Positions 5,005 through 22,700 of a DNA stretch of 24,000 nt are shown piece after piece. The stretch spans positions 25,954-49,953 of the forward strand of contig JAYTIE010000270.1 in assembly GCA_043732015.1 (NCBI GenBank), written 5' to 3'. This stretch comes from Elusimicrobiota bacterium. GTDB lineage: Bacteria; Elusimicrobiota; Elusimicrobia; F11. Under the pieces are notes generated by a model. The model worked only from the letters and a program-made list of their open reading frames with translations, was not told the origin of the DNA and did no database searches. A program made the position numbers and the translations under genes. Position 1 is the first letter of the stretch. Every line of letters starts with the position of its first letter.

Positions 5005-5078
5005 GGAGGGATTCTAGCAGGTCCGAAGGGGTTTCTCGAAGGCCCAGTTTTCGTGCTGATTCGACGGATGCTTTGTCG

Positions 5079-5084
5079 TATAGT
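5079..5084 (+). promoter_or_regulatory. candidate -10 box (TATAGT) placed for a leaderless or near-leaderless transcript of the 5092 gene
   Basis: tatagt at 5079-5084, a 7-nt gap (ccacccc), then ATG at 5092. No SD is present, and I found no convincing -35. Confidence 0.3.
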
Positions 5085-5091
5085 CCACCCC

Positions 5092-6984: not shown

Positions 6985-8067
6985 TTATTCGCGGGTGGTT
7001 TTCCAACGGCGTTCGTCCGTTCCCTCATCCAGGATCACGTCGAACGTGAGGATGGAGATGGGGCGTTCGTCATCGGTTTCCGCGGTCACGCGCCAACGGC
7101 CCGGGACGAAATTCGATTTGATGGCCACGCCGCGGAATCCTTCGGCGCGCCCGCCCAGTATGTACAGCGGAATCCGGTCGCTGGTCTGCCACGTCTTCCG
7201 GACGGGATCACGAAGCTCCCAGCGGATGATCACCTGATGGCGAAACCGGCTCGGGGCGAAAACGCGCGCGAAGTAACAGAGGCGGTCCCCCGGACGCGCA
7301 CGGAAGGGACGTGAATCGTGCCGCCAGAAATCCAGCGTGGAGGGACGTTCGTAGATCAGCTCATAGCGGCCGTTGACGCGTTGCACGTCGTGATAGAGGC
7401 CCTGGAACTGTACGGACAAAGGCACCGGCGGAATGAGGCGCAGCACATAGAGCGCGCCGATGATGGCGATGACCGCGCCCGCCGGCGCGAATAGCCGCTG
7501 ACGGGACTGCGCCCGGTTCTCATCGAACGCGGCGAGCCAGTCCGCCACACGCCACACCACCCCTGTCGTGACCAGAAGCGCCAGCGCGAACACCCACCCG
7601 CCCATCCGGCCGATGATGATCGGAATAAAGAAGTTCATGAAGGACAACACGCAGAACGCGTAAAGGCCGAGCCGCATCCGGTGGCCGGCCCGGCGAACCT
7701 GGGGCATTTCATTCAGGAACAGGAGCACGACCAGGAACAGGAAGAAAACGAGGGGGCGCGCGCCCGTGCTGCTCTGGAAGTAGAGCACGACGTAGCTGCT
7801 GAGAAGGCCTCCGTAGCAGAAATGCAGCGCTTCAACGTTGTAGTGCCACCACTTGGCCAGGAAGGCGGGCGGTGTCCAGCCGACGCGAAGTTCGCGGTAT
7901 TGCCAGATGAGAAACGCGGTGACGATCGACAGGTACAGCAGCTGCATGCCGATGTCGGCCAGCGCGTCGATGCGGCGGATTGTCAGGTAGTCGAAAATGA
8001 ATCCGCCGACGAACATGAGTTCGTTGGCGTGGTGGTGGAGGCGTTTCGCGAAGGACTTCATATCCAT
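6985..8067 (-). CDS. DUF2914-type membrane protein (multi-TM N-terminal region plus C-terminal beta-rich domain)
   Basis: About 7 hydrophobic helices, then the C-terminal GDRLCYFARVFAPSRFRHQVIIRWELRD...WQTSDRIPLYILGGRAEGFRGVAIKSNFVPGRWRVTAETDDERPISILTFDV. This fits my recollection of the DUF2914 pattern (H.W...W......l.i.GGR..G+R......G.WrV.v). Start trimmed from 8118 to ATG 8067 (MDMKSF), which avoids overlap with the divergent gene. Confidence 0.6.
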   Translation of the reverse strand: MDMKSFAKRLHHHANELMFVGGFIFDYLTIRRIDALADIGMQLLYLSIVTAFLIWQYRELRVGWTPPAFLAKWWHYNVEALHFCYGGLLSSYVVLYFQSSTGARPLVFFLFLVVLLFLNEMPQVRRAGHRMRLGLYAFCVLSFMNFFIPIIIGRMGGWVFALALLVTTGVVWRVADWLAAFDENRAQSRQRLFAPAGAVIAIIGALYVLRLIPPVPLSVQFQGLYHDVQRVNGRYELIYERPSTLDFWRHDSRPFRARPGDRLCYFARVFAPSRFRHQVIIRWELRDPVRKTWQTSDRIPLYILGGRAEGFRGVAIKSNFVPGRWRVTAETDDERPISILTFDVILDEGTDERRWKTTRE

Positions 8068-8071
8068 CGAA

Positions 8072-8077
8072 TATAAT
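8072..8077 (+). promoter_or_regulatory. consensus -10 box (TATAAT) inside a 19-bp divergent intergenic spacer
   Basis: tataat at 8072-8077, 9 nt before the ATG at 8087. This is the only AT-rich patch locally, and no SD lies between it and the ATG. Confidence 0.35.
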
Positions 8078-8086
8078 AGCCGGATC

Positions 8087-8746
8087 ATGACGGAAACCAT
8101 TTTCATCACGGGCGCCACCGGCTACATGGGGCAGGCCCTCGTCCCCGGCCTTTTGAAACGCGGGCACCGGGTTCGCGCGCTCGTGCGTCCCGGTTCAGCG
8201 TCCCGGCTGCCGCCGGGGTGCGAAGCGGTGCCGGGCGACGCCCGTGACGCCGCCACTTTTGCCTCGGCAGTGGCCGGTTGCACCGCGTTCATTCAACTGG
8301 TGGGCGTTTCTCATCCGGGTCCGGCGAAGGCGAAACAATTTCAGCTGGTGGACCGCGTGGCGGGACTGGGCGCCGTCGAGGCGGCCCGGCGAGCGGGCGT
8401 TCGCCACTTCGTCTATCTTAGCGTGGCCCAGCCGGCGCCCGTCATGGGCGCGTACATCGCCGTGCGCGCGGAAGTGGAGGCCGCCCTGCAGCGCAGCGGC
8501 ATTCCCTCGACCGTGCTGCGTCCCTGGTATGTGATCGGTCCCGGCCACCGCTGGCCCCTGCTTATCCTTCCGGTCCTGTGGGTTCTGGAGCGCATTCCGG
8601 CGACGCGCGCCTCCGCTCAGCGGCTCGGATTTGTTTCAATCGGTCAGATGACGTCGGCGCTGCTGAACGCCATCGAGCGCCCGGCCGCGGCTGGCGTCAG
8701 AATCTGGGATGTGCCGGCGATCCGGCGTGGAGGAAAAGATGAGTGA
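8087..8746 (+). CDS. NAD(P)H-binding atypical SDR / NmrA-like oxidoreductase
   Basis: Trimmed to ATG 8087. The sequence MTETIFITGATGYMGQALVPGLLKRGHRVRALVR is a classic TGxxGxxG Rossmann N-terminus of the NAD(P)-binding (NAD_binding_10-like) family. Confidence 0.75.
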   Translation: MTETIFITGATGYMGQALVPGLLKRGHRVRALVRPGSASRLPPGCEAVPGDARDAATFASAVAGCTAFIQLVGVSHPGPAKAKQFQLVDRVAGLGAVEAARRAGVRHFVYLSVAQPAPVMGAYIAVRAEVEAALQRSGIPSTVLRPWYVIGPGHRWPLLILPVLWVLERIPATRASAQRLGFVSIGQMTSALLNAIERPAAAGVRIWDVPAIRRGGKDE

Positions 8747-9059
8747 GATGACCGTTGTGGCACGGGCCCGGGCGAAGAAAGGATGTGAAAAGGGTGTAGA
8801 GTCCGCGCTTCGCGCCTGCGTCGCCGAGACTCACAAGGAAAAGGGCTGCCTCCGCTACACGCTGCACCGCGGCGCCGAAGATCCCGCTCTTTTCGTCGTC
8901 GTGGAACGCTGGGCTTCCCTCGCCGATCACGAAGCCCACATGAAGACGCCGCACGTCGCTGCTTTGTTTGCCGCCGTTCCGTCGCTCGTCGCGGAATCCC
9001 CGGAGATTCTCGTGCTGTCGCCTTTCGACGCCGGTCTCCCGGAAAAAGGCCGGCTTTAA
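8739..9059 (+). CDS. antibiotic-biosynthesis-monooxygenase (ABM) domain protein, YgiN-like putative quinol monooxygenase
   Basis: ATG 8739 with GGAGG at 8729-8733, and an 8-nt overlap with the SDR gene. VVARARAKKG...ETHKEKGCLRYTLHR...PALFVVVERWASLADHEAHMKTPH is the ferredoxin-like ABM signature. Confidence 0.75.
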   Translation: MSEMTVVARARAKKGCEKGVESALRACVAETHKEKGCLRYTLHRGAEDPALFVVVERWASLADHEAHMKTPHVAALFAAVPSLVAESPEILVLSPFDAGLPEKGRL

Positions 9060-9940
9060 GGAAGCGCCGGCGCCGGACAGACGGCGTCGGGAAGTTTCTT
9101 CAGGGCCAGGCCGTCGGGATCGTTCAGGTAAAGCGAGACCGGCAGTTCGATCATCCGAGCGGCGTTACAGGCTTCCTCCTTCTCCGCATCGCTCCTAACG
9201 TAGAACAGTCCGGTGACGCGGAGATTTTTACCGCCCGACTGAACCGCCATGTCGCTTCGCCGGCGGATTTCCAGCCAGAACTCGGGCGTTCCCGTCACCG
9301 CATCTTCTATCACGACGCCATCCACCTTTCCCCGCCAGCGCGGAATGCCCTCGGTGCCGTTGTTCACGTAAACCGTTCCGCCGTGGGTCCAGCCTTTCAG
9401 GGAGCGCACCAGCCGGTCCATCCCCGCCATCACGCGCGTTTCGGTTTTCGCCGTGAACACATCCACCGGAACGAGAACGGTGTCGGCAAACACGCCGTCC
9501 ATTCCCATTTCGTGAATGGCGCGCGCCTGCGCGCGGACGCGTTGGCGCCAGGTCCGGTCGCCCGGGTTCACATAGTAAGAGCCCCACTCCGCATTGGAGT
9601 CCGCGACATGGTCGGGCCCGATCGTCTTGAATCCGGCACCCGTGTATTCATCCAGATACCAGGACGCCTGTCCTCCCGGACCCCGGCCGTTTCCCCGGCG
9701 GAGGGCGTCGTCCTCGCCCAGCGAAACATAGCCAAGCACCCGGGAAACGCCCGCGGCTTTCAGGGTAGCGACATCGGCTTTGGTGTAGTGCGCGGGCTGG
9801 AGAATGACGGTGTCGAAGCGGGAGAGTTCATCGAGGCGGCCCACGCCGTAATAGCAGGCGAGGCCGGTGCCGGCGCGGGCGTTTGAAGACAGGGAGAAGG
9901 TCAGTGCGGCGAGAAGGGCGCTTGCGAGCGCGCGTTTCAC
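9056..9940 (-). CDS. secreted PelA-hydrolase-like glycoside hydrolase (GH114/GH166-type TIM barrel, endo-alpha-1,4-(N-acetyl)galactosaminidase-like)
   Basis: Track ORF 9056..10354 trimmed to GTG 9940, which overlaps the pelG stop as GTGA. Signal peptide VKRALASALLAALTFSLSSNARA/G. ACYYG...FDTVILQP...VLGYVSLGE...WGSYYVNPGDRTWRQRV...GMDGVFADTV matches the GH114/PelA-hydrolase layout (YlS.GE..., W.....i......G.DGvf.D.vD). Confidence 0.7.
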   Translation of the reverse strand: MKRALASALLAALTFSLSSNARAGTGLACYYGVGRLDELSRFDTVILQPAHYTKADVATLKAAGVSRVLGYVSLGEDDALRRGNGRGPGGQASWYLDEYTGAGFKTIGPDHVADSNAEWGSYYVNPGDRTWRQRVRAQARAIHEMGMDGVFADTVLVPVDVFTAKTETRVMAGMDRLVRSLKGWTHGGTVYVNNGTEGIPRWRGKVDGVVIEDAVTGTPEFWLEIRRRSDMAVQSGGKNLRVTGLFYVRSDAEKEEACNAARMIELPVSLYLNDPDGLALKKLPDAVCPAPALP

Positions 9941-11334
9941 CGGCCGGTGCCGGAATTGATGAAGAAGATGTGACGGCTCAGGTTCGCGATTCCGTTGCGG
10001 AGGACGAGCCACGACGCCACCGTGCAGATGGCGATGGCGGCCAGGTAGCCCCAGCCGAATCCCAGCCACGGAGCCTGCGTCGCGTTCAGCCAGGTGAGGC
10101 CCGTGTTCAGCACGAAGAAAAGAACGGCCATGCCCAGCGCGCGGAGACGGAATTCGAAATAGAGAAGAAGGATCAGGTGAATCCAGAACAGCACTTGGAA
10201 GAAGGCGGCGCCGATCAGAACGCGGAAAATGTTCACCGTTGTTTCGTCGAGGCCCAGCCGGCGCAGCAGGAAGCTGCCGATAAAAAGACCGACCACTCCG
10301 ACGACAAGTTCGAGTTCGAAGAGGTTGTTCATGTGACGCTTCAGATTTTTCCACAGCTCATCCCGCTGTTCTTCGACGAGGCGGAGCGAGCTGCGCTCCA
10401 GGTGCTCGAGATAATCGCGGTAGTCGTAGTAGAAACGGGTTTCCACCATGACGAGGAAATAGGAGATCGCCGGCATCATGATCAGGTAGGACAGGAAGGT
10501 GGCGATGTCGTACGGCGGGAAAATCCGCATGCGGCTTCCATCCACGATGTGCCCAGTGATGTGCCAGAGCAGGAATTTATCGATCCACGTTCCCAGGTTG
10601 TAGAGGAATCCGATCGCGGCCAGCGAGGAGAAGGTTTTTCCGTAGGAGAAGAGGAACGTGGGACTGAACGGTTCGATCTCCGAAGCGCCCTCGGGCTTGC
10701 GCATCGAGGCGATCAGCAGCCCGACGAACGCCAGCAGCAGTCCGCCCGCGAATCCGGAAAGAAGGCCATCCAGTCCCTGATGGCGGAGAATGAAGGCGAG
10801 AATCACGGACACGATACAGCCACCCGCGAACACGAAAAACGACGTCGCGTAACGCTTCTGGAAATCGAGATAGGCGAGCGAGCACCAGGCGCCGGTCAGA
10901 GAGGCAAACAGGATGGCGGTGGCCACCTGATAGAGCCACGAGTTGCCCAGCTCAACCGGAAAGAAGTGCCGGGCGCCCATCATGCCGATGACGAGCGACA
11001 GGGGAACCAGGATGAGCTGAACCATGGCCAGGGCGCGGCGCTGGTCCATGTGCCCCAGGAAACTCCGGTCCGCCAGGTAGCGGCTGAACACCATGAACAA
11101 GGGGCCCGTCGCGAGCAGGGATCCAGCGAAAATGTACATGACGGTGGACGTGAAGAAAACCATGTCCGGCAGGCCGAGAAAACGCTGCCCGATCAGGCTC
11201 ACGAAGCCGACCGCGAAAATGGTGGCGAGCCAGGGACCGACCGAGAGCGCCAGCGAATAGCCGAACACCCGCGCAACGGTCACATAGCTGGATCCGCGCT
11301 GGAGGCGCTTCAGTTCTAAACCGATGCCGGCCAT
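9937..11334 (-). CDS. pelG: Pel polysaccharide export/polymerisation membrane protein PelG (MOP/PST-like, about 12 TM)
   Basis: The N-terminus MAGIGLELKRLQRGSSYVTVARVFGYSLALSVGPWL is nearly the conserved PelG N-terminus (P. aeruginosa MAGIGFEL...). The protein is hydrophobic throughout. Its start overlaps the end of pelF by 19 nt. Confidence 0.85.
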   Translation of the reverse strand: MAGIGLELKRLQRGSSYVTVARVFGYSLALSVGPWLATIFAVGFVSLIGQRFLGLPDMVFFTSTVMYIFAGSLLATGPLFMVFSRYLADRSFLGHMDQRRALAMVQLILVPLSLVIGMMGARHFFPVELGNSWLYQVATAILFASLTGAWCSLAYLDFQKRYATSFFVFAGGCIVSVILAFILRHQGLDGLLSGFAGGLLLAFVGLLIASMRKPEGASEIEPFSPTFLFSYGKTFSSLAAIGFLYNLGTWIDKFLLWHITGHIVDGSRMRIFPPYDIATFLSYLIMMPAISYFLVMVETRFYYDYRDYLEHLERSSLRLVEEQRDELWKNLKRHMNNLFELELVVGVVGLFIGSFLLRRLGLDETTVNIFRVLIGAAFFQVLFWIHLILLLYFEFRLRALGMAVLFFVLNTGLTWLNATQAPWLGFGWGYLAAIAICTVASWLVLRNGIANLSRHIFFINSGTGR

Positions 11335-12746
11335 GCCGCCTCCTGCGTGAGGGAAAGGTAAAGGGTCTGGAACGCGTGTAACGTCCGCGAAACGTCGAAT
11401 CCGGTCACGCGCTCGCGGCCCGCTTCCACCATCCGGTGGCGAAGCGCCGGATCGTCGTGAAGACGGCGGATGGAACGCACGAGCTGGTTCAGGTCGCGCG
11501 GAGGCACCACCTGTCCGATGCCGCTCAGCAGGTCCGGGATGCCGCCGCTCCGGGTGGCGACCATGGGAACACCCGAGGCCATAGCTTCCAGCACCGTCAG
11601 GGGCTGGACTTCCTTCAGGCTGCAGAGCACCAGGAGATCGAGATCGGCGTAGCAGTCGGCCGGATCCTTGAGGCCTTCGAAGCGGATCACGTTCTCAAGG
11701 CCCCGGCTGGACACCAGCGCGCGGCATTCGCGTTCGTAAACGGGATCTTCGACGGGTCCGATGATCGCGACCTGGAGATCGGGAATGCCGGGGAGAAGTT
11801 CGGCGGCCGCCATGATCAGAAGCTTGATGTCTTTCACGGGCGCCACGCGGCCGACCAGGCCCACGCGGAATCCTTCATGCGCTTTGCGAGGCGCCGCGGC
11901 GAATTTTTCGATGCGGATTCCGTTCGGGATGATCCGCGTGTTGCGCGGATCGGCGCCCATATCCACCTGATGCCGGCGAATGAATTCAGCGAGTGAGGTG
12001 ACGTGGTCGGCCTGCTGGTAGGCCCAGCGGCTGACCCACTCGAAAAAGGTTTCGACGGCCTTCCGTTGTCCGCCCTGAAGGAAATCGTGGAAGGCGACTT
12101 CCATCTGGCGTTCCTGCAGATAAAGGCCGTGCTCGCTGATCACGAGCGGCTTGTTGTAGCGCAGCTTGGCAAAACAGCCGAGGAGACCGGCGTAACCGGT
12201 GGCGGCGCTGTGATAGATGTCGGCTTCGGGAAGTTTCGTGCGGATGAGGCGGACCACGCCGCGCGCCATCGTTTCCCACACCCAGAAGAAGCGCGCGATG
12301 GAATCTTCCTCGCCGGTCAGCGCGTACAGGCGCGAGATGAGATCCCAGAAGACGCCGTTGTTGAGCAGATCGTTTTCGTCGAGCGGCGAGGCTTCGATGC
12401 GGCGGACCAGCGGAAGAAGCCGGGAGAAATCGTTGTTCTGCAGTCCGTCAAACGCCGCGCCGAAAGCGTCCGCCACCGGTTTCACGGAGGCGCGCGAGCG
12501 GAAGCGGCTCATCACCGTCCGCTTGGCTTTCGAGGGATTCAGATTGATGGTGATGACGCCCTTCACATTCGAGGGAAGCGGGAATTCGTAATCGCGCGCG
12601 GTCCGGTCCCGGTCGGTCAGCGCGACGATGGTGAAATCCTGGTTGGGCGACCCCAGGATGAGCTCGTGCGTCCAGACGGAAACGCCGCCCTTCACATAGG
12701 GATAGGTTCCTTCCAGGATCAGGCAGACGTGTTTGCGCGCGCTCAT
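11316..12746 (-). CDS. pelF: Pel glycosyltransferase PelF (DUF3492-type N-domain plus GT4 GT-B fold)
   Basis: VCLILEGTYPYVKGGVSVWTHELI is the PelF/DUF3492 signature. The C-terminal GT4 motifs are GRVAPVKDI..., the LLVLCSLKEVQPLTVLEAMASGVPMVATRSGGIPDL segment with an E..-7-E-like motif, and DDPALRHRM. Start set at ATG 12746, which overlaps the upstream stop as ATGA. Confidence 0.9.
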   Translation of the reverse strand: MSARKHVCLILEGTYPYVKGGVSVWTHELILGSPNQDFTIVALTDRDRTARDYEFPLPSNVKGVITINLNPSKAKRTVMSRFRSRASVKPVADAFGAAFDGLQNNDFSRLLPLVRRIEASPLDENDLLNNGVFWDLISRLYALTGEEDSIARFFWVWETMARGVVRLIRTKLPEADIYHSAATGYAGLLGCFAKLRYNKPLVISEHGLYLQERQMEVAFHDFLQGGQRKAVETFFEWVSRWAYQQADHVTSLAEFIRRHQVDMGADPRNTRIIPNGIRIEKFAAAPRKAHEGFRVGLVGRVAPVKDIKLLIMAAAELLPGIPDLQVAIIGPVEDPVYERECRALVSSRGLENVIRFEGLKDPADCYADLDLLVLCSLKEVQPLTVLEAMASGVPMVATRSGGIPDLLSGIGQVVPPRDLNQLVRSIRRLHDDPALRHRMVEAGRERVTGFDVSRTLHAFQTLYLSLTQEAAWPASV

Positions 12747-14884
12747 GGTTTCAGTCTCCGGCGCGCGCGGGACAAGGTCCACAGCGGGAAAGCGAAGAGC
12801 GAGAACGCGAGCAGCGGCAGCCCGGCGCGCCGCGCGGCGCCCGCGGTGGCGGTCGTCGGCGAGATGCGGACGGTGTCGTGGCCCGATCCGTCGAAATGGA
12901 AGTGCGCCACGCCATTCGCGACGCCGGCGATGGCGACGTAGGGCCGCTGGCCGTTGGTGTCGTCCGCTGCGGTCACACGCAGTTCATAGGCGCCCTTTTT
13001 CGGAACGCGAACATCAAGCTCAGTCCGTCCAAAGGACCTGGTTTCGAGAAGGAGCGTGTCACCTTCCGTCTCCCTCGCATCCACCCAGCCGGCGGCGGAA
13101 ACGACGCTCGCCTGCGCCTGCGGCTGGCTGGAAAGCGCGATCACATGCCGATGGGAGCCATCCAGGAACACGTAAAGTTTTCCGTTCCGGTCGGCGAACC
13201 CGACCACGTTTTCAGAGCGGCTGAAGTCCACGCTCTCGCCCGGTTTGGAGAACACGACCGTCCGGCAGTCGCCCGCGTTGGAAACCACGGTGCGCCCGTC
13301 ATCGTCGCGCGCCAGGGCCGCCGTCTGGAAATCGCTGACGAGTTTCGTGTAGTCGGACACGAGCACGGGAGACACTTCGTGGCGGGTGGCCCAGTCGAAC
13401 ACCGAACACAGGGCCCGCAGGGACTTCACGGATTCACCGCTGTAGAAATGGAAGTAGGCGTGCGCGGGCGTTTCCGGCTGCGCGGCCGTCCGCTCGAAGG
13501 TCTCGATGATGTTCTGGTAACCGTCGAGGTGATCCTTGGACCAGCCGGAGGTGAGGTCGAAGTCGTTCGAAGCCCGGTGATAGAACTGCATCATTCCGTC
13601 GATGCGGCGGGTCATGGGAGAAAGATGGGTGCGGGACGGATACAGCTGGTCAAATCGGTTCGTGAATCCGGTGTCTCCGTTGAGGCCGTTGATGTTCGCG
13701 ACGCCGAGCGCGGACAGGCGACGCAGCGCTTCCGCCGGTGGATTCGCGAGCGAGCTCCAGGTGAACAGCGCGACTTTTTTTCCTTCCGGCATTACGCGCT
13801 CATTCATGGTCGTGATGGATCCGTCAATTTCCGCCGCCAGGTCCACGGTGGGCGCCGACCAGTCGAGCGGGTGCGACGCGCTGTGGCTGGCCGCTTCCAC
13901 GTGGGGCAGCGCGAACATGGCGCGCGCAATGCCGAGTGCGCGCGAATCGCGATCAAGATCGCTGGACACCACGGAGACGGAAATGGGCATGCGGTAAACC
14001 GACAGGATTCTTTCGAGAATCACCTGTCCGCAGAGAATTCCCGATTCCGATGGAGACAGGAAGCCGTCGCCGTCGATGTGCGCCATCCAGAGCCGGCGGC
14101 CGTTCAACGTGGCCGCTTCAAAATGCGGATCGGATTCGAGACCCAGTGTTTCCGTCAGGAAGGCGTAGGGATCAAGATGCCAGCGCTGTTTGGTGAGGTC
14201 CGCCTGGCGGTATTCGTAGAGAAGATAGTCGCGCGCGGCGTAGCCGCCGGTCTTCGTGGCGAGGACGGGCGTGCTTTTTCCGTCGGCCAGATCGGTCCGG
14301 TTCAGCGTGAGATAGGCGGTGGCGTCGGCGCTGAGAGCCAGAACCTGATGGTATGAGCCCACGCTGGCGGCGGTAAATGGCTCTTCGAATGAAAGCAGAG
14401 GAGCGGCGCTGACGAGAGAAATGCGGTCCGGGTCCGCGGTTCCGAATCCTTCGTAGCGAAGTCCCAGCGCGGTCAGTGACCGGTTGAGATCCTGATGGCT
14501 GAGGAAATTTCCGGAAGCACGGTCCCGCATCGCGCCGATTTCTCCGAACACGACGAACTTCCGGCCGGCAGCGGTCTGGCGGTTCATCCAGGCGAGGTAG
14601 TCCTTCGCGTTCGTCATCACCGGGCCGCGGAAGAACGTCACGACGCCGCGGTAGGGGCTCATGTCGGCGGGCAAAGCATTGTCGGCGTCCGCGTAATCCA
14701 CCGCGAGACCCAGCGATTCGAGAGGTTGTTCCAGCAGTGACGCGGTCTGGTTGTGCGCGGCGGAATCGCCTTCGGAGCTCTTGTAGAGCGCCAGCACGCG
14801 ACGCTTGATTTCCGTCGGCTGAGCCTGCGCGGCGGCGACGCAGGCCAGCGCGGCGCCGAGAAGGATGAGGCGGCGGATCATCAT
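12743..14884 (-). CDS. PelA-like periplasmic polysaccharide deacetylase (CE4-type) lacking the hydrolase domain, with a C-terminal TM anchor
   Basis: Signal peptide MMIRRLILLGAALACVAAAQA/QP. CE4-like metal and catalytic motifs WMAHIDGDGF (about 14063-14080) and EAASHSASHPLDW (H-S-x-x-H at 13871-13885). An N-terminal alpha/beta domain and a C-terminal beta-sandwich-like region parallel the reductase-like, deacetylase and jelly-roll regions of PelA. The last 30 aa form a hydrophobic helix followed by RARRRLKP. Confidence 0.65.
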   Translation of the reverse strand: MMIRRLILLGAALACVAAAQAQPTEIKRRVLALYKSSEGDSAAHNQTASLLEQPLESLGLAVDYADADNALPADMSPYRGVVTFFRGPVMTNAKDYLAWMNRQTAAGRKFVVFGEIGAMRDRASGNFLSHQDLNRSLTALGLRYEGFGTADPDRISLVSAAPLLSFEEPFTAASVGSYHQVLALSADATAYLTLNRTDLADGKSTPVLATKTGGYAARDYLLYEYRQADLTKQRWHLDPYAFLTETLGLESDPHFEAATLNGRRLWMAHIDGDGFLSPSESGILCGQVILERILSVYRMPISVSVVSSDLDRDSRALGIARAMFALPHVEAASHSASHPLDWSAPTVDLAAEIDGSITTMNERVMPEGKKVALFTWSSLANPPAEALRRLSALGVANINGLNGDTGFTNRFDQLYPSRTHLSPMTRRIDGMMQFYHRASNDFDLTSGWSKDHLDGYQNIIETFERTAAQPETPAHAYFHFYSGESVKSLRALCSVFDWATRHEVSPVLVSDYTKLVSDFQTAALARDDDGRTVVSNAGDCRTVVFSKPGESVDFSRSENVVGFADRNGKLYVFLDGSHRHVIALSSQPQAQASVVSAAGWVDARETEGDTLLLETRSFGRTELDVRVPKKGAYELRVTAADDTNGQRPYVAIAGVANGVAHFHFDGSGHDTVRISPTTATAGAARRAGLPLLAFSLFAFPLWTLSRARRRLKP

Positions 14885-16095
14885 TCGCCGAACCTCACTT
14901 CGACGCTGGTGTCGAGGCGATTTTCAGAATAGTCCTGGCTGAAGCGGCCGTTGGAATCCAGGTGATAGAGTTCGCCGCGCAGCGACACGTTGCGGTTCGC
15001 GCGCCATTTCACGCCGCCGCGGAGGGACTGTTCGTAGCGGCCTTCGTCGTTGACGCCGGCCGTGAATTCCGCGAGGTAGCCCCAGCGCTCGGCGGCCGTC
15101 ATCGGACGGCCCGGCAGGGCTTCGAACGGCGCGCGTTCGAAATTGCGCGTCAACCGGAGGCGGCCGAACATGAGGTGATAATAGGCGGGCGACCAGTAAG
15201 TCGGTCTCTCGTCGGCGTAGGACGTCGTTTCGATGCCGGCGGACGCCGTCAGCCCAATTTTTTTGGAAATCGTGTAGCCGGCTTCGCCGCCGAAGCCCGC
15301 GCGCGTGTTGTGATCGCTCAGCCAGGCGCCGGTCGCAAAGCCGTCGATCCACCAGCGCGGGAGAAGCTGATAGAAAAGCCCGATACCCGCCTGCCAGAGC
15401 GCGAGCCGGTCCCGAACGTTGACGAGGCGCTCCCACATGTCGCGATGCGCCACGTCGAGCGTAATGCCGAGCCGGGATCCGATGCCCCCGGAGAGGCGCG
15501 CATCGCCATTCCAGTCGCCATGCAGCCCGTCGTAACGGTCTCTCTCCAGGCCTTCCTGAAGGAGCCAGCCCTTCGGCAGAAGGTGGGCGCCGTCGATGCG
15601 CCACGCTTCGCCGTAAATCCGGTCGTTGTCATCACGGAAGCGCAGGCGCGCGCCGGACGCCTGAAGCCGCGTGTGGCTCGAGATGAAAACGAAGGCGCCG
15701 CCGGAGAACGCTTCCCGGCGGATTTCAAGGCTGTCCCAGGAACGCGTGTAACCCGCGAACACACCGGGACGGCGGTCCGTGTTGTCGCGAGAGGATCCGT
15801 CGTTGGTGCCTTCCTCTTCGAGTTCGAGCGCGGCTTCGGCTTCTTCCACGTCGCCCTGGCCGGTGGAATCCAGCGCGCTGCCCGCGTCACCGCCCCGGAT
15901 CCAGTTAAGGTTGTCGCGGAAACGGGCGTCTTCGATGCCGTCACTGGAGCGGTGATTGACCGCCAGCGGCTCTTCCGGCGAAATATTGTACCCGCCGGAA
16001 CCGGGAGGGAAAATGGCTTCAATCATCATCGGGATGGCCATGCTCATTCCGAGGAGAATGAGAAAGATGCCGGCCAGTCCGGCGCGGCGTCTCAT
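14881..16095 (-). CDS. putative outer-membrane beta-barrel (porin-like) export protein
   Basis: N-terminal hydrophobic signal or anchor (AGLAGIFLILLGMSMAIPMMIEA) and an acidic low-complexity linker (GDVEEAEAALELEEEGTNDGSS). About 300 aa of alternating amphipathic strands with aromatic girdles follow (GFGGEAGYTISKKIGLTASAGIETTSY, VSLRGELYHL, RLDTSVEVRFGE). ATGA coupling at both ends. No family is recognised; it may be analogous to the PelB C-terminal porin. Confidence 0.5.
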   Translation of the reverse strand: MRRRAGLAGIFLILLGMSMAIPMMIEAIFPPGSGGYNISPEEPLAVNHRSSDGIEDARFRDNLNWIRGGDAGSALDSTGQGDVEEAEAALELEEEGTNDGSSRDNTDRRPGVFAGYTRSWDSLEIRREAFSGGAFVFISSHTRLQASGARLRFRDDNDRIYGEAWRIDGAHLLPKGWLLQEGLERDRYDGLHGDWNGDARLSGGIGSRLGITLDVAHRDMWERLVNVRDRLALWQAGIGLFYQLLPRWWIDGFATGAWLSDHNTRAGFGGEAGYTISKKIGLTASAGIETTSYADERPTYWSPAYYHLMFGRLRLTRNFERAPFEALPGRPMTAAERWGYLAEFTAGVNDEGRYEQSLRGGVKWRANRNVSLRGELYHLDSNGRFSQDYSENRLDTSVEVRFGE

Positions 16096-16754
16096 GGGCG
16101 GCCCGTCCAGTAGTTGACGGCGTTGTTCATCTCATCGCGGTGGGGCAGCGCCGAAATCGCCGCCATTTCCGAGCGGCACCCATCGAGGTTGCCCAGCGTC
16201 AACTGCATTTCGGCGATGAGAAACCGGGCATTCGCGTAATCCGGAGCGGTGGGCGGCACGAGACCGAGAACGGTGCAGCCGTCGCGCCCGCGACCGAGAC
16301 GCGCGTAGATGCGTCCGAGCTGCAGGCGGGCGGAGGTCAAAAGCGGTTCTTTCAGGTGATCGATGGCGGCGGCCACATGCCAGGCGGCCTCGGAATAGGT
16401 GGAGCGCTGGGTTTCAAGCGAATGTCCGGCGGAAGCCGCGCGGTCATAAAGGAGTCGCGCCAGTTCGAGCCGCGCCTCGGAGAGCTCCGGCTCGGCGTCG
16501 ACGCGGCGGCGTTCACGCTGGATGGCCTTCTCGGATTTTTCCGAAAGCCGCTCGAGCGCCAACGCGGCGAGAAGCCGGATGCGCTCGTCGGGATCCTGGA
16601 GGGCCTGATGCAGCACGGCGGAGGCTTCGGGATGTCCGCTTTCATAGAGATCCATGACCATACGCTTGCGCTGTTCCCAGCTCTCCGTGCGCAGAAGGGC
16701 ACGGTAGGGAAGAACGTTCAGCGCGTCGCGATGGGGAGGGCGGAGGACGACCAT
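16092..16754 (-). CDS. HEAT/TPR-like alpha-solenoid protein without signal peptide or TM segment (positional equivalent of PelE)
   Basis: HEAT-like HPEASAVLHQALQDPDERIRLLAALALERL and TPR-like ARLELARLLYD / ARLQLGRIYARLGR / ARFLIAEMQLTLGN. I see no hydrophobic stretch. It starts 5 nt after the PelD-like stop. Confidence 0.5.
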   Translation of the reverse strand: MVVLRPPHRDALNVLPYRALLRTESWEQRKRMVMDLYESGHPEASAVLHQALQDPDERIRLLAALALERLSEKSEKAIQRERRRVDAEPELSEARLELARLLYDRAASAGHSLETQRSTYSEAAWHVAAAIDHLKEPLLTSARLQLGRIYARLGRGRDGCTVLGLVPPTAPDYANARFLIAEMQLTLGNLDGCRSEMAAISALPHRDEMNNAVNYWTGRP

Positions 16755-16759
16755 GGATA

Positions 16760-18112
16760 TCAGCGGGCCGCGGGGACGGTGGGCGGTTCTTCCTTCCGCA
16801 GACCGGAATCCTCGAGAGTCTGGGTTCCGAAGGAGAAAGCGAGTTCGAGCGGCGCGGGATGTTCTGCCGGAACGGCGATCGTGGAGAGCTGTTCGCTGGT
16901 GCGCTGGATGAACGCGTTGGTCTTTTCCGGCGCGGTCTGTGTCATCAGGAGCGCCAGGCGGCCGTTGCCCTGATAGGACAGCACGTCTGATTTTCGCTTG
17001 TTGCGGTCGATCACGCCGATGACCTGACGGACCAGGGATTCGGCCATCGCGGGACCGAGATCGGTCGCGTAGGAATCGAAATTCCGGATGTCCATGAACA
17101 GAAGGCTGATCGCCCCCTTGTAACGGTTCGCGGCGTGGACTTCCTGTTCGATTCGCTGGCGGAAGCCCGCCCAGGCTTCCAGTCCTTCGCTGACCGATCC
17201 CTTGCGCTGCGCGGCGTTCTCGAGGCAGCGGTTGAGAAGGCCGGCCAGAAACCCGAGGTTGGCCAGCGTGTAGGGCGTCAGGCGAACGAGCGGCAGCGCT
17301 TCGATCAGCAGCACGGAGTGAAGCTGGCCCTGAACGATAATGGGCGCCGCGGCCAGAAACTGAACGCCGGAGGAAAGAGACTCGACGTCCCGAACGGAGA
17401 GAACGGCGGGTTTCGCCTGGAGCTGCGCGAACGGCGTGGCGCTCTGGGAAACGGCCGCCGGGTTTTCAACGCTGGCCTGTCCCGCCTGGGAGCGGCGCCA
17501 GAAACGTTCCTTGGCGCGGTCAAAGAGATACAGGGCGCACTGGTCTGCGCCGACGATCTTCTGCGCCAGAGGCGCGGCTGCGTCCAGAATGCGCGATTCT
17601 TCCGACGAGAAAAGATCTTCGGATGCGCCATGGAGCTCGGTCAGCTGGATGTCTCCGAAACGAATCCACTCTTCCAGCTCCCGGTTGGAAACCTCGAGGC
17701 GGTTCCGTTCCTCGGTCACGGACGAGAGGGATGTTTCCAGGGCGGCCGTTCGCTCGCGGTGGTGATGGAGGGACCGCTGGTAAAGCTCTCCGGCTTCACC
17801 GAAAAAGACGCCGCCCAGAATGAACACGACCACGTTGGTCAGGTCGGGCTGATGGAAAATAGAGTTGGCCGCGAAGCCCGCGGCGGACAGCTGAACGCTG
17901 TAGAACACATTCGCCAGGAGAGCCGACGCGACACCCTCGCGGAATCCATAGAACAGGCCGATCAACGCGATGGGCAGAAGATAAGGATGAACGGGATAGG
18001 ACCGGAACGCGGGCACATGCCGGAACCACACATGGTTGATGACGGCCATGACGACGAGAAAGATGGCCGTGTCGATAACCGAACGCCAGTGGAAGACGCG
18101 AGATCTGTTCAT
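16760..18112 (-). CDS. pelD: PelD-like c-di-GMP receptor (4 TM, coiled-coil, GAF, degenerate GGDEF with intact I-site)
   Basis: Four N-terminal TM helices. Coiled-coil RERTAALETSLSSVTEERNRLEVSNRELEE. GAF-like ILDAAAPLAQKIVGADQCALYLFD...HSVLLIEAL. C-terminal GGDEF fold ISLLFMDIRNFDSY...RKSDVLSYQGNGRLALLM, where GG(D/E)EF is replaced by GNGRL but RxxD sits exactly 5 residues upstream. Confidence 0.8.
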   Translation of the reverse strand: MNRSRVFHWRSVIDTAIFLVVMAVINHVWFRHVPAFRSYPVHPYLLPIALIGLFYGFREGVASALLANVFYSVQLSAAGFAANSIFHQPDLTNVVVFILGGVFFGEAGELYQRSLHHHRERTAALETSLSSVTEERNRLEVSNRELEEWIRFGDIQLTELHGASEDLFSSEESRILDAAAPLAQKIVGADQCALYLFDRAKERFWRRSQAGQASVENPAAVSQSATPFAQLQAKPAVLSVRDVESLSSGVQFLAAAPIIVQGQLHSVLLIEALPLVRLTPYTLANLGFLAGLLNRCLENAAQRKGSVSEGLEAWAGFRQRIEQEVHAANRYKGAISLLFMDIRNFDSYATDLGPAMAESLVRQVIGVIDRNKRKSDVLSYQGNGRLALLMTQTAPEKTNAFIQRTSEQLSTIAVPAEHPAPLELAFSFGTQTLEDSGLRKEEPPTVPAAR

Positions 18113-18273: not shown

Positions 18274-19665
18274 CTAGACGCGCTTGGTCTTCCAGTGGCC
18301 CTGCCGGAAAAGCACCGCGCTGACCACCGCGAGCGCGGAAAACGCCAGCGTGACGGCGATGAAAACGCCCTGCGGTCCCATTCCTACTACGTGCGAGAGT
18401 GCCCAGGCGGCGGGGATTTCGAAGACCCAGAACACGAAGAAGTTGATCAGGGTGGGCGTCCAGGTATCGCCCGCGCCGTTGAAGGACTGCGTGACGACCA
18501 TGCCATACGCATAGAAAAGGAAGCCGCACGCCACGGTTCTCAGGCACGCCGTGGCGTATCCGTGCACGGCGGGATCGGTCGAAAACCATCCGGTGATGTT
18601 GGGGGCGAACACGAGATACAAAAGCCCCATCGATCCCAGGAACACGACGTTGTACAGGCCGGCGAGCCACACCGACTGTTCCGCCCGGTCCGGCTTTCCG
18701 GCGCCCAGCGACTGGCCCACCATGGTGGCGGCCGCGTTGCTGAGCCCGAACGCGGGGAAAAGGGCGAAGAGAATCATTCGCATGCCCACGGTGTAGCCGG
18801 CGACCGCGTCGCTTCCGAAAGTCGAGACCACGCGGACCAGTCCCACCCAGCTCGCGGTCGCCACGAAAATCTGCAGCGTGCTGGAAGCCGAGAGGCTGAT
18901 CACGCGCCACATGACCTCCGAGTGCAAGACCAGATGACGGGCAAGAACTTTCACGCGACCGTTGCCCCGGAACAGGTGGGACAGGCTATAAGCCGCGCCG
19001 ATGCCGCGCGACACGGTGGTGGCGACGCCGGCGCCGGCCACGCCCAGCTTTGGAAAGAAAAGAAGCCCGTAAATGAAGCAGGGCGCGAGGATGAGATTGA
19101 GTCCGTTCGCAATACAGAGCGCGCGCATGGCAATGGTGCCGTCTCCCGCGCCGCGAAACAACGCGTTTCCCAGGAAGAGGAGAAGAATCGCAAAGTTGCC
19201 GCCAAACATGACCCGCATGTAGGGCGTGGCCGTGGCGGCCAGCGCCGAATCGGCGCCCATGAGTTTCAGAAGTTCAGGCGCGAATGAGACGCCGGCGGCG
19301 CCCAGAAGCGCGGACACGAAAATGCCGAGGGCGATCACCTGGACCGACGTGTTGGCTGCGCCTTCGAAATCCTTCTCGCCGATTCGCCGGGCCATCATGG
19401 CCATTGCGCCGATGCTGAGTCCGAACGCCACGGTATAGACCACGGTGAGAAGCGATTCGGTCAGGCCGATCGCGGCGATGGCCGAGGGCCCCAGGCGACC
19501 TGCAAAGAAAATGTCCGTGACCGCGAACACGCTCTCCATCACCATCTCGAGAATCATCGGGATGCCGAGCAGGATGACGGCCTTGCTGATCGGGCCTTCC
19601 GTGTAGTCCCGCGGCGCCCCGTGGATGGCTTCCAGAAATATTTTCCACACGCTTTTAATGGACAT
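18274..19665 (-). CDS. MATE-family efflux transporter (NorM/DinF-like, 12 TM)
   Basis: Trimmed to ATG 19665 (AAGGAAGA just upstream). MSIKSVWKIFLEAIHGAPRDYTEGPISKAVILLGIPMILEMVMESVFAVTDIFFAGRLG is the typical MATE N-terminus, with the second-half repeat ...RVISLSASSTLQIFVATASWVGLVRVVSTFGSDAVAGYTVGMR. Confidence 0.85.
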   Translation of the reverse strand: MSIKSVWKIFLEAIHGAPRDYTEGPISKAVILLGIPMILEMVMESVFAVTDIFFAGRLGPSAIAAIGLTESLLTVVYTVAFGLSIGAMAMMARRIGEKDFEGAANTSVQVIALGIFVSALLGAAGVSFAPELLKLMGADSALAATATPYMRVMFGGNFAILLLFLGNALFRGAGDGTIAMRALCIANGLNLILAPCFIYGLLFFPKLGVAGAGVATTVSRGIGAAYSLSHLFRGNGRVKVLARHLVLHSEVMWRVISLSASSTLQIFVATASWVGLVRVVSTFGSDAVAGYTVGMRMILFALFPAFGLSNAAATMVGQSLGAGKPDRAEQSVWLAGLYNVVFLGSMGLLYLVFAPNITGWFSTDPAVHGYATACLRTVACGFLFYAYGMVVTQSFNGAGDTWTPTLINFFVFWVFEIPAAWALSHVVGMGPQGVFIAVTLAFSALAVVSAVLFRQGHWKTKRV

Positions 19666-19753
19666 TCTTCCTTCAGTTGTTGATAATGAATCCAAGGTCG
19701 AAATGTCTCCCCTACCGTCGACCGATCGTGTCATTCCGTTCCCGGAGGACCCC

Positions 19754-22700
19754 ATGCGCTCACGTCCGTCGCTACGTCCGGCCCTGATGCCGGCTCTCTT
19801 CCTCTCGCTCATCTGCGCCGTTGCTCAGGCAGCGGATCCCACGGTGTCGATCCTCACTCCTTCGAATGGCGCGACCGTCGCCGGCGCTGTGCACGTCAAT
19901 GTGTCCGCAGCCAGCCCAACGCAGGTCGTGAAAGTGGAATATTTGGTGGACGGCGCTTTCGTCTATCGTACGGCGGGTCTTCCTTACTCGTTCGGCTGGG
20001 ACACCGCGGCGCTCACCGATGGCGCGCATACGCTGACCGCCACCGCTTATAACAATTCCAATCAGAGCACGTCTCAGAGCATCACGGTCACCGTGAATCA
20101 CACCGGCGTCATCACGGTTCCCAACGCGCCCAGCATCGTTCAGGTGTCGGGACGCCAGCTTCTTGTGCAGAAGCGGAAGTCCGACGGCACGCTCTCGCCC
20201 GCGACCCCGTATCTCATCAAGGGATTCACCTGGACCGCGAGCAGCGTCGCGCCGGTCCGCGGCTACAATCCTTATGATCCGTCCAACCCCGCCGGTTTCA
20301 CCGACTACGGCTATTTCTTCGACTGGTCCGGCCGCAATCCACAGGGGCATACGATCCAGTCGGAATGGTCCCGCAACCGCTATCAGGGCCAGTTTGCCCA
20401 GGACGCGGCGCTGATGAAGTCCGCGAACGCGAACACGGTGCGCGTGTACAATGACTTCGGCTCGGACCCCGCGGCGACGAAGTCCATCCTGGACGAGTTC
20501 TACCGGCGCGGCATCATGGTTGTGTTGACGATCGTCAGCTCGCAGGACGATATCTCCAGCGGCCGTTATCTCCAGACCGTCAACCTGTGCAAGAACCATC
20601 CGGCCATTCTCATGTGGGCGCTCGGCAACGAGTGGAACGTGAACCGCTACTACCAATCCTATCCGGACACGCTTACCGCCAGGGCGGCGACCGAGCAAGC
20701 GGCGCAGCAGATCAAACTGACCGATCCGAATCACCCGGTCAGCTCTTCCCTCGCGGACCGCTGGACCGTTTCCACGGGCGGCGCTTGCGGATCCGACGAC
20801 GCGTCGAGCGACATTCCGACCATCGTGCAGAACGTTCCGTCCGTCGACCTGTGGGGCCTGAACATCTATCGCAACGCGGGCTTCGGCACGCTGTTCACGG
20901 ACTGGAAGAACTTGACGGGCAAGCCCATGTTCCTGGGCGAGTTCGGCACCGACGCGCTGACGACCACGGCGTTCAACCAGCCGCCGCAGTGTGTGCAGCT
21001 GGTGAGCGTCACGGCGGCCAACGTCACGCCGGTTGTCCAGTCGCAGTTCGACCAGGACCGCTGGAACGAGATCCGTCCCAACCTTTCGGGCAACGATGCG
21101 ACAAAGGTCGCGATCGGCGGCTTCGTTCACGAGTTCGCCGACCAGTTGTGGAAGGCCGGCAATTACAACAACAACATGGGTGGCGTCGTGAATTACAGCG
21201 ACGGCATTCCGCACTACCAGCAGTCCGACTTCCACGGATTCTATGCGCCGGGCTCCAACCCGGACGCCGTGTTCAATGAGGAATATTTCGGCGCCGTTCA
21301 GGCCGACCGCACACCGCGCGACCTCTTCTACACGATGCAGTCGTACTACGCGGGTCTCGCCGATCCGCAGGCGCCGGCGCAGCTTCCCGCGCCGACGGGC
21401 CTCAACTCCTCCGCGATCTCGCAGACAGGTTTCACGGTGGGATGGTCCGCCGTCAGCGGCGCGACCGGATACAGGCTGGACGTCTCCGCCTCCTCGTCGT
21501 TCGCGACGCTTCTGGCTTCCTACAACAACCTCGATGTGGGCAACGTCACGACGAAGTCCGTGGCCGGTCTCACTGCGGGCACGCCGTACTATGTCCGCCT
21601 CCGCGCCTACGACGCGTCGGCCGTCGCTTCGCTGAACAGCACGACGCTGAACGTGCAAACCCAGGCGTCCTCGAACGACACCACGCCGCCGACGCCGATT
21701 CCCTGGCTCGGCCTGTCCGCGCCGACGTCAACGTCGCTGAAACTTCAGTGGCAGCCCGCCACCGACAACGTCGCGATCGGCGGTTACCAGATAAACGTGT
21801 CGCTGACGTCGAACTTCAGCTCGTTCGTGACTGGCTATCAGGCGAAGGTCGTGGCCGCGAACCCGACGTCGTCGTCGCTCACCGGACTGTCGCCGTCCAC
21901 CGTGTATTACGTGAACATGCGCTCCGTGGACACCTCGGGAAATGTCTCGACGCTCACCGACACGGTCAGCATGGCGACGAGCGCGGGCTCGGCGCCGCCG
22001 GCCGCGCCGACGGGCCTCAACTCCTCGTCCGTCTCGCAGACCGGCTTCACGGTGAACTGGCCGTCGGTAGCGACCGCGACCGGCTACCGGCTGGACGTTT
22101 CGCTGTCGCCGTCGTTCTCCACGCTGCTGAGCGGCTACAACAACCTGGACGTCGGCAACGTGACGAGCAAGGCCGTCACCGGCCTCACCGGAAGCACCGT
22201 CTACTACGTGCGCCTTCGCGCGTACAATGCGGCGGGAACGTCGGCTTCGTCTTCGGCGCTCAGCGTCACGACCAGCGCGACGCCCACGGTTCCCTCGGCT
22301 CCGGCCGGACTGAACGCCTCGGGCGTAACATCGAGCGCGTTCACGCTCGGTTGGGGCGCGGTGGCCAATGCGACCGGCTATCGCGTCGACGTGTCCGTCT
22401 TGTCCGACTTCAGCTCGACCTTGGCGTCGTACAACAACCTCGACGTGGGCAACGTGACGAGCCTCCCGGCCACGGGCCTCTCGGCCTCGACCGTCTATTA
22501 CACCCGCGTGCGCGCCTACAACAGCGCGGGCACGTCGGCGAACAGCGCCCCGTTCAACGTCACCACGCAGAGCGCCAGTTCGGACACGACGCCGCCGTCG
22601 TCCATTCCGTGGCTCGGCCTGTCGACGTTCGCGTCCACCTCGATGACAGTGGATTGGCAGCCGGCGACCGACAACGTTGCCGTGACCGCCTATCAGGTGA

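Follow-up and report, generated by a model that had tools for sequence, protein, structure and literature searches.

The 24,000-nucleotide stretch of DNA that we analysed (hereafter the window; positions 25,954 to 49,953 of contig JAYTIE010000270.1, assembly GCA_043732015.1, from an Elusimicrobiota bacterium) contains a synthase-dependent locus of the Pel exopolysaccharide type. Seven consecutive co-oriented open reading frames (ORFs) appear in the ORF listing of the window, running along the minus strand from 18112 to 9056. The first is a pelD-like gene (16760..18112; 450 amino acids, aa) whose product combines four N-terminal transmembrane helices and a coiled coil with a GAF and a degenerate GGDEF domain. 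It is followed by a pelE-like gene (16092..16754; 220 aa) for a soluble TPR/HEAT protein without the transmembrane helices of PelE, and by a gene (14881..16095; 404 aa) for a predicted PelB-porin-like, 16-stranded outer-membrane beta-barrel that has no TPR domain. Next come pelA_DA (12743..14884; 713 aa), which corresponds to PelA minus its hydrolase domain, pelF (11316..12746; 476 aa), encoding a GT4 glycosyltransferase, and pelG (9937..11334; 465 aa), encoding a polytopic inner-membrane protein. The last gene, pelA_H (9056..9940; 294 aa), encodes a stand-alone periplasmic PelA-type (GH166/GH114-like) hydrolase with a signal peptide. A first-pass annotation of this DNA had proposed a Pel-type exopolysaccharide operon of seven co-oriented, coupled genes at 9056-18112. 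The strand and limits are confirmed, two of the starts have been refined, and all seven gene calls hold in profile, structure, and synteny tests.

The seven genes are tightly packed. A gap of 5 nt separates pelD from pelE, ATGA overlaps join pelE to the barrel gene, the barrel gene to pelA_DA, and pelA_DA to pelF, and the last two junctions are a 19-nt overlap between pelF and pelG and a GTGA overlap between pelG and pelA_H. Because all six junctions are tight or overlapping, we conclude that the genes are translationally coupled. The most likely start of pelF is ATG 12746; GTG 12782 would add 12 residues and would overlap the upstream gene. For pelA_H the start is GTG 9940, and the protein read from there opens with a typical signal peptide (VKRALASALLAALTFSLSSNARA). 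We rejected a 432-aa reading of this last gene from 10354, since its first 138 codons (~400 nt) lie inside pelG and GTG 9940 precedes a clear signal peptide. Independent gene calls on an identical Logan contig (L001) gave proteins of 425+ (truncated where the contig ends), 220, 404, 713, 476, 465, and 294 aa, with boundaries that agree with the refined ones. GC content is even across the operon and its flanks. Rfam searches found no riboswitch or other RNA within the window, no promoter upstream of pelD was picked up in a sigma-70 scan, and terminator-like hits did not clearly exceed shuffled expectation.

The identities of PelF and PelG are unambiguous, as both proteins score far above the curated family cut-offs. 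PelF matches the NCBIfam equivalog NF038011 at 294.5 bits (cut-off 100) and Pfam DUF3492 (PF11997) at 229.8 bits, in addition to Glycos_transf_1. PelG matches Pfam PF16933 at 321 bits, with residues 1-457 covering all 452 model positions, and has about 12 hydrophobic segments.

The first gene appears to encode a PelD-like receptor for cyclic di-GMP (c-di-GMP), judging from its architecture, motifs, and context. Its product matches the Pfam GGDEF (46.9 bits) and GAF (22.9 bits) models. In an alignment with WspR, RKSD (residues 373-376) falls on the I-site RSSD (RxxD), and GNGRL takes the place of the catalytic GGEEF. An inactive cyclase domain that keeps its c-di-GMP-binding I-site is a hallmark of PelD (PMC2170427, PMC7112168). 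Moreover, residues 12-436 are colinear with the proteins encoded at the PelD position of two related loci, L007, which has a full TPR-PelB (E 3e-15), and L011 (E 7e-21).

The second gene had been described as encoding a solenoid. It does encode a helical-repeat protein, with a HEAT_2 match at 35.6 bits and weak HEAT and TPR matches, but a more precise identity can now be proposed. The proteins at the PelE position of L007 and of another related locus, L008, are 337-340 aa long and have two or three N-terminal transmembrane helices. When the gene 2 family was aligned with these proteins by hhalign (probability 97.9%, E 6.6e-13), gene 2 aligned over its full length and only to their residues 124-334. 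No hydrophobic segment and no signal peptide was found in the gene 2 product, and the ORF cannot be extended upstream, as it begins at the first start codon after a stop, 5 nt past the pelD stop. Gene 2 is thus the soluble domain of PelE alone, without the membrane helices. We also considered whether gene 2 might be the TPR half of a fissioned PelB, and ruled this out because the protein lacks a signal peptide and aligns along its entire length to the soluble domain of the PelE-position proteins.

All the domains of PelA are present in the locus, split over the 713-aa and 294-aa genes with pelF and pelG between them. The larger protein, PelA_DA, is ~31% identical to full-length PelA proteins of 920-950 aa over ~80% of its length, and phmmer aligns it with residues 256-820 of the PtPelA chain 9cgy (E 1.4e-47). 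Its AlphaFold2 (AF2) model (pLDDT 91.3) matches the same structure in Foldseek with E 4.5e-48, a TM-score of 0.75, and an rmsd of 3.4 A, the next match having E 4e-8. The protein opens with a signal peptide; alpha/beta, CE21 deacetylase, and beta-rich domains follow, and at the C-terminus there is an additional hydrophobic helix with a tail rich in Arg. Residues D271, D273, H334, H338, and H479 are invariant in an alignment of 28 sequences. They correspond to PaPelA D528, D530, H600, H604, and H761, the catalytic base, metal triad, and catalytic acid (residues from PMC12022489), a mapping made through the 9cgy alignment and a 36-residue chain offset derived from that alignment itself. H269 corresponds to PaPelA H526, and the acid-positioning residue is Asp rather than Glu (PMC12022489). 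The first-pass annotation was right to assign a deacetylase; however, the family is not CE4, as the PelA deacetylase is the founding member of CE21, which is similar to CE4 but distinct from it (PMC12022489).

The C-terminus of PelA_DA (residues 679-713, window 12743-12850) forms a helix (679-711) followed by RARRRLKP (…LPLLAFSLFAFPLWTLSRARRRLKP). A helix and basic tail of this kind are found in the four closest stand-alone PelA_DA relatives and in P0039, the PelA_DA of L011. The helix is absent from PelA_DA proteins encoded beside a full TPR-PelB and occurs only in loci without one. The layout resembles that of PEP-CTERM-type tripartite sorting signals but has no PEP motif.

The smaller protein, PelA_H, had been assigned a GH114/GH166-like hydrolase signature, and the assignment is borne out. 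It matches Pfam GH114 at 32.7 bits (cut-off 27), and phmmer aligns it with the PelA hydrolase 5tcb (E 2.3e-8) and with residues 13-176 of 9cgy (E 2.7e-8). In the alignment to 5tcb, VFADTV lies opposite LFLDTL, and VVIED lies opposite AVAVES, the motif with the catalytic E218 (residue from PMC9894940; its placement in AVAVES is our own count on the tagged 5tcb chain).

The product of the barrel gene has no Pfam or NCBIfam match, and a search of PDB sequences with the family profile returned one chance antibody match and nothing else. An AF2 model built from an 11-sequence alignment (pLDDT 71.6 overall, ~85 in the barrel) predicts a helix at residues 2-28, a disordered segment at 29-103, and 16 beta strands over 111-401. 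The N-terminal hydrophobic helix is a probable signal peptide. Members of the family end in ...(V/L)(R/K)F, the usual C-terminal signal of outer-membrane proteins; the barrel of this operon ends in ...RF(GE). When the model was compared with the PDB by Foldseek, the first match was PelB in the PelBC complex (9h80_M; E 2.5e-12, TM-score 0.58), followed by PgaA (4y25; 0.56) and BcsC (6tzk; 0.55), with the scores of 0.55-0.58 normalised to the full 404-residue query. All remaining barrels scored 0.41 or less. PelB, PgaA, and BcsC are the solved 16-stranded exopolysaccharide porins (PMC12141448). It had been claimed that the locus lacks recognisable PelB and PelC. The first half of this claim needs revision, as the PelB porin is the best match to the barrel; the TPR domain and a PelC within the locus are indeed missing. 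The barrel protein itself contains no TPR, and nothing resembling PelC or a TPR protein was found elsewhere in the window. The fold comparison suggests that the barrel is a PelB-porin counterpart, that is, a PelB reduced to its porin with the TPR domain missing.

In sequence, the barrel family is isolated. We obtained 11 word-index hits, and five 50%-identity clusters lay below E 1e-30 among 1.84 billion representatives. The next four matches of the profile are weak (E 1.4e-5 to 3.7e-4), and three of these four are proteins with TPRs and a C-terminal barrel. Two such remote relatives are encoded beside GT2 synthases (L004, L013), and one directly follows a 706-aa DUF2194 PelA_DA-like gene (L014/L015). 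In L014 (7902-11794) and L015 (423-4315), this PelA_DA-like gene overlaps the 597-aa TPR-plus-barrel gene in a two-gene module that has no PelF or PelG within 10 kb and looks like an orphan modification-and-export pair.

The segment between the helix and the barrel (residues ~31-105, window 15780-16005) carries 13-22 acidic residues and 2-8 basic residues in all 15 of 15 family members. This disordered extension of ~75 residues has a net charge of -8 to -17 across the family and contains an invariant N62..W65..G69-D70-x-G72 motif. A second invariant motif, Y300-W301-x-P303..Y306, lies in strand 12 and might match the conserved Tyr-1103 of PelB (PMC12141448).

Is this arrangement an accident of one contig? 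The same order, D, E' (220 aa), barrel (~405 aa), A_DA (~712 aa), F, G, and A_H, occurs at three other independent loci, namely L002/L003 (in GCA_964482515.1 and on a Logan contig), L010 (from ENA), and L012 (from JGI Ga0163151). In L002, L010, and L012, all seven proteins align full length with those of the window at 33-69% identity. A seven-gene order with full-length colinear orthologues in three other contigs is far beyond chance. Moreover, every barrel-family gene with readable neighbours sits in a pel locus. The flanks of the four syntenic loci, including the window, contain no PelC-like or TPR gene. The family is rare: it was found in 1 of 185,579 species-representative genomes, on a 3.4-kb contig of an Elusimicrobiota metagenome-assembled genome (MAG), and on two JGI metagenome contigs. 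Only two members carry taxon labels, 'Elusimicrobia bacterium' (P0123) and 'Elusimicrobiota bacterium' (L006). Named members of the barrel family thus come from Elusimicrobiota MAGs only.

The host had been taken for a diderm, and our results agree. Because the barrel ends in the C-terminal Phe motif of outer-membrane proteins and L002 is flanked by a TonB-dependent receptor gene and a TolC-like OEP gene, we conclude that the host is a diderm. It is probably an uncultured member of the Elusimicrobiota.

Several related loci show which features belong to this operon in particular. L007 (GCA_029262055.1) encodes A_DA, A_H, a 1112-aa TPR-PelB, D, and a 337-aa PelE. L008 encodes D, E, F, G, A_DA, and a 1193-aa PelB, and in L009 (a Fibrobacterota MAG) A_H is followed by A_DA. 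L011 has D, E (266 aa), A_DA, F, and G, and no barrel; in this locus (7633-16448), the pel genes are followed by a gene for a 479-aa secreted low-complexity protein that is rich in PTK/AP repeats and has an Asp run. Neither a split PelA nor the lack of an operon-encoded PelC is peculiar to the locus in the window, since the divergent diderm loci L007 and L008 show both and still have a full TPR-PelB. What is peculiar is the TPR-less barrel, the PelE without transmembrane helices, and the C-terminal anchor on PelA_DA.

A number of other genes surround the operon. On the operon strand, 161 bp upstream of pelD, is a MATE-family transporter gene (18274-19812, minus strand). A MatE gene is found ~8 kb upstream in L012 and none upstream in L002, and L010 shows no upstream sequence. 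We considered this gene as a part of the system and set it aside, as it is not conserved beside the operon in L002 or L010 and is probably not part of it. Divergent from the MATE gene, at 19625-22894 on the plus strand, is a gene for a 1089-aa secreted protein, possibly a surface glycanase, that has a Big_7 Ig domain, five fibronectin type III domains, and a weak GH2_C/GH72-like TIM barrel. The operon strand carries, just past the pel genes, a gene for a DUF2914 membrane protein (6985-8118, minus strand). In L010 the DUF2914 gene (9234-10349) directly follows pelA_H on the same strand; in L002 it is not at that place. This gene may be a lineage-specific accessory or simply reflect a conserved neighbourhood. 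Two plus-strand genes at 7997-9059, one for an NmrA/NAD_binding_10 protein like a short-chain dehydrogenase/reductase (SDR; 7997-8746) and one for an ABM monooxygenase-like protein, converge on the 3' end of the operon, where the stops of the ABM gene (9059) and of pelA_H (9056) overlap. The end of pelA_H contains a GC-rich hairpin (9067-9090). Farther away, a gene at 5053-6726 (plus strand) encodes a polytopic membrane protein of 557 aa that matched no Pfam model. AT skew is marked (-0.318) in the region 5001-6000, and the opposite strand carries a 545-aa ORF (5014-6651), probably a shadow ORF.

How might the seven proteins work together? We consider it likely that the locus encodes a functional Pel-type system in which the products have the roles assigned above. 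In such a system, c-di-GMP would bind the retained RxxD I-site in the catalytically dead GGDEF domain of PelD. The inner-membrane complex for polymerisation and translocation would consist of PelD, the soluble PelE-like protein, PelF as a cytosolic GT4 enzyme, and polytopic PelG. In the periplasm, the CE21 enzyme PelA_DA would partly de-N-acetylate the polymer, probably while held near PelG by its C-terminal helix. The polymer would leave the cell through the PelB/PgaA/BcsC-type barrel of 16 strands, without a TPR scaffold, and the free periplasmic PelA-type hydrolase would trim it. The predicted product is a partially de-N-acetylated alpha-1,4-linked polymer of N-acetylgalactosamine (GalNAc), containing both GalNAc and galactosamine (GalN). 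The conserved active sites of the CE21 deacetylase and the PelA-type hydrolase support such a product indirectly.

Two features of the locus may take over functions that other Pel systems assign to missing parts. The PelA_DA of Bacillus cereus is a three-domain, membrane-anchored deacetylase with a transmembrane helix that has been modelled to contact PelG (PMC13254593). The C-terminal helix of the PelA_DA described here plausibly does the same job and would replace the recruitment of PelA by the TPRs of PelB. The electronegative funnel of PelC is thought to attract cationic Pel (PMC12022489, PMC12141448), and, more speculatively, that funnel could be replaced here by the barrel's acidic tail. 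On the boldest view of the locus, Pel is exported without a TPR scaffold or a PelC ring, with the acidic tail and the PelA_DA helix as substitutes. This would make the locus a minimal diderm machine and possibly a link between the monoderm pelDEA(DA)FG operon and the proteobacterial pelABCDEFG operon. We offer this view tentatively, as one that is more probably wrong than right.

Several observations weigh against a functional Pel system with the roles that we have assigned. Recruitment of PelA and stronger deacetylation have been reported for the TPRs of PelB (PMC12022489), and the ring formed by PelC is described as essential in Pseudomonas aeruginosa (PMC12141448); the locus has neither. 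The organism is known from metagenomic contigs only, and a TPR-PelB or PelC could be encoded outside the window. The kinship of the barrel with PelB is argued mainly from fold and context, and its sequence links are weak: when the barrel family was compared by hhalign with the C-terminal 420 aa of two PelB proteins, the probability was 0.9%, with no signal. Among the PelD, PelF, and PelG calls of the first-pass annotation, the latter two pass Pel-specific cut-offs, but the PelD-like protein matched no PelD-specific model and only the generic GAF and GGDEF models. In a search of PDB sequences it matched only active diguanylate cyclases (such as WspR) and no PelD structure at E<=0.01. Finally, sugar specificity cannot be read from sequence.

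Three other explanations were weighed. One is that the 404-aa barrel is not the exporter, or is not sufficient for export, and has another role (porin or anchoring protein, for example), with a TPR-PelB, a PelC, or both encoded elsewhere in the genome. Our view of this genome is limited to 24 kb, the hhalign comparison with PelB C-termini gave no barrel signal, and in P. aeruginosa PelB is described as unable to function without PelC (PMC12141448), all of which would fit such an arrangement. However, the barrel gene is coupled by ATGA overlaps on both sides, it occupies the same position in four of four independent loci, and every readable neighbourhood of its family is a pel locus. Moreover, its best folds are exactly the three solved 16-stranded exopolysaccharide porins, and the flanks of the four loci are free of TPR and PelC-like genes. 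We therefore regard a non-exporting or insufficient barrel as unlikely.

The machinery could also belong to the Pel family and yet make another polymer (GlcNAc-rich, say, or with some other modification), in which case the locus would be 'pel-like' rather than Pel. All seven proteins are only 20-35% identical to their canonical-type counterparts, published surveys caution that the polymer made by divergent pel loci may not be identical (PMC7112194, PMC7112168), and no UDP-GlcNAc 4-epimerase of the PelX/GalE type was recognised in the operon, the nearby SDR (7997-8746) being a generic NmrA/NAD_binding_10 protein. Nevertheless, both Pel-specific modification enzymes, the CE21 deacetylase and a hydrolase with the PelA-type alpha-1,4-N-acetylgalactosaminidase fold, are kept with their catalytic residues. 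An unrelated substrate is hard to reconcile with the retention of both enzymes, and we judge a different polymer to be improbable, to about the same degree as a barrel that does not export. Far less credible is a non-functional, decaying remnant of a canonical pel locus. Three proteins do look cut down when compared with those of P. aeruginosa: PelB lacks its TPRs, PelE its transmembrane helices, and PelA is in two pieces. But the seven ORFs are intact and coupled, the catalytic and I-site residues are conserved, and stand-alone PelA_DA and PelA_H proteins are functional in B. cereus (PMC7112168, PMC13254593). The reduced architecture is kept across orthologues that are 33-69% identical, which points to long-term purifying selection. 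We give the remnant explanation almost no weight and favor a working Pel-type system.

Why would such a system matter? Current models of Pel export come from P. aeruginosa and regard the TPR domain as the platform for PelA and the dodecameric PelC ring as essential, both being Pel-specific parts of the exporter (PMC12022489, PMC12141448). The minimal requirement for export would be defined by a natural, conserved system in which the barrel is kept and both the TPR domain and PelC are dropped; the same holds for a soluble PelE and a tethered deacetylase. Structural and complementation studies would gain constructs that are small and tractable, and there is one more data point on the kinship of monoderm-type and diderm-type pel operons. 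It is already documented that 'pel-like' clusters are widely diverse, that the locus is often lost, and that pelB undergoes fission (PMC7112194; bioRxiv 10.64898/2025.12.21.693542). We found no report of this gene order with a PelB-type barrel that stands alone and lacks TPRs, and no mention of Elusimicrobia together with Pel genes in the literature searched. What appears to be new here is the TPR-less barrel within this gene order, in an otherwise known Pel family defined by F, G, D, and A. The impact is limited by the documented diversity of pel loci, the rarity of the family, and its uncultured hosts.

The locus shares much with the pelABCDEFG operon of P. aeruginosa: PelF, PelG, a PelD-type receptor, a PelE-type TPR domain, the domains for both PelA activities, and a 16-stranded PelB-type barrel. 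The order of the genes differs, being D-E-B'-A_DA-F-G-A_H here and A-B-C-D-E-F-G there. PelA is a single multidomain protein in P. aeruginosa (hydrolase, alpha/beta, deacetylase, and beta-rich domains) and is encoded by two genes here, with an extra C-terminal membrane helix on PelA_DA. PelB is represented by the barrel alone (404 aa), in which a disordered acidic tail takes the place of the TPRs. PelE in P. aeruginosa has two N-terminal transmembrane helices and a TPR-like domain, whereas the protein described here lacks the helices. PelC, there a small outer-membrane lipoprotein that rings PelB, has no counterpart within the locus. Thus, four defining features of the canonical system are absent: a fused PelA, a TPR-PelB, a PelC (in the window and the syntenic flanks), and a PelE with transmembrane helices. 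L007, L008, and L009 resemble the locus in having a stand-alone PelA_DA of ~700 aa, a PelA_H of ~295 aa, and no recognisable PelC in the operon. In contrast, L007 and L008 keep a PelB of 1112 or 1193 aa with TPRs (their pelB genes encode roughly 1100-1200 aa, compared with 404 aa here) and a PelE of 337-340 aa with transmembrane helices, and their PelA_DA proteins have no C-terminal helix. PelB (9h80), PgaA (4y25), and BcsC (6tzk) share with the barrel the 16-stranded fold, a C-terminal aromatic residue, and a gene inside an exopolysaccharide operon; unlike it, they are fused to periplasmic TPR domains, and sequence similarity to them is marginal or absent.

In its organisation the locus resembles the pelDEA(DA)FG operon of B. 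cereus ATCC 10987, which has the same core order D-E-A_DA-F-G (PMC7112168, PMC13254593). Both systems have a stand-alone, three-domain PelA_DA (alpha/beta, CE, and beta-sandwich) with a single membrane helix, a separate PelA_H, and a PelD with a degenerate GGDEF domain and an I-site. The first-pass annotation had described the order as that of the monoderm type with an inserted barrel gene. The relative order of the core is indeed kept, with the hydrolase gene at the end, but its contiguity is broken by the outer-membrane barrel gene between E and A_DA. The locus thus departs from the Gram-positive type in two features, strict D-E-A_DA-F-G contiguity and a monoderm host. In addition, pelA_H is the last gene here and co-transcribed, whereas it is divergent in B. 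cereus. PelA_DA has a cleavable-looking signal peptide and its anchor at the C-terminus, whereas the B. cereus protein is anchored at the N-terminus (PMC13254593). By sequence and fold, this PelA_DA is closest to a Gram-negative PelA (9cgy). Altogether, the locus is best explained as a machine laid out on the lines of the Gram-positive pelDEA(DA)FG operon, with a minimal outer-membrane exit in addition.

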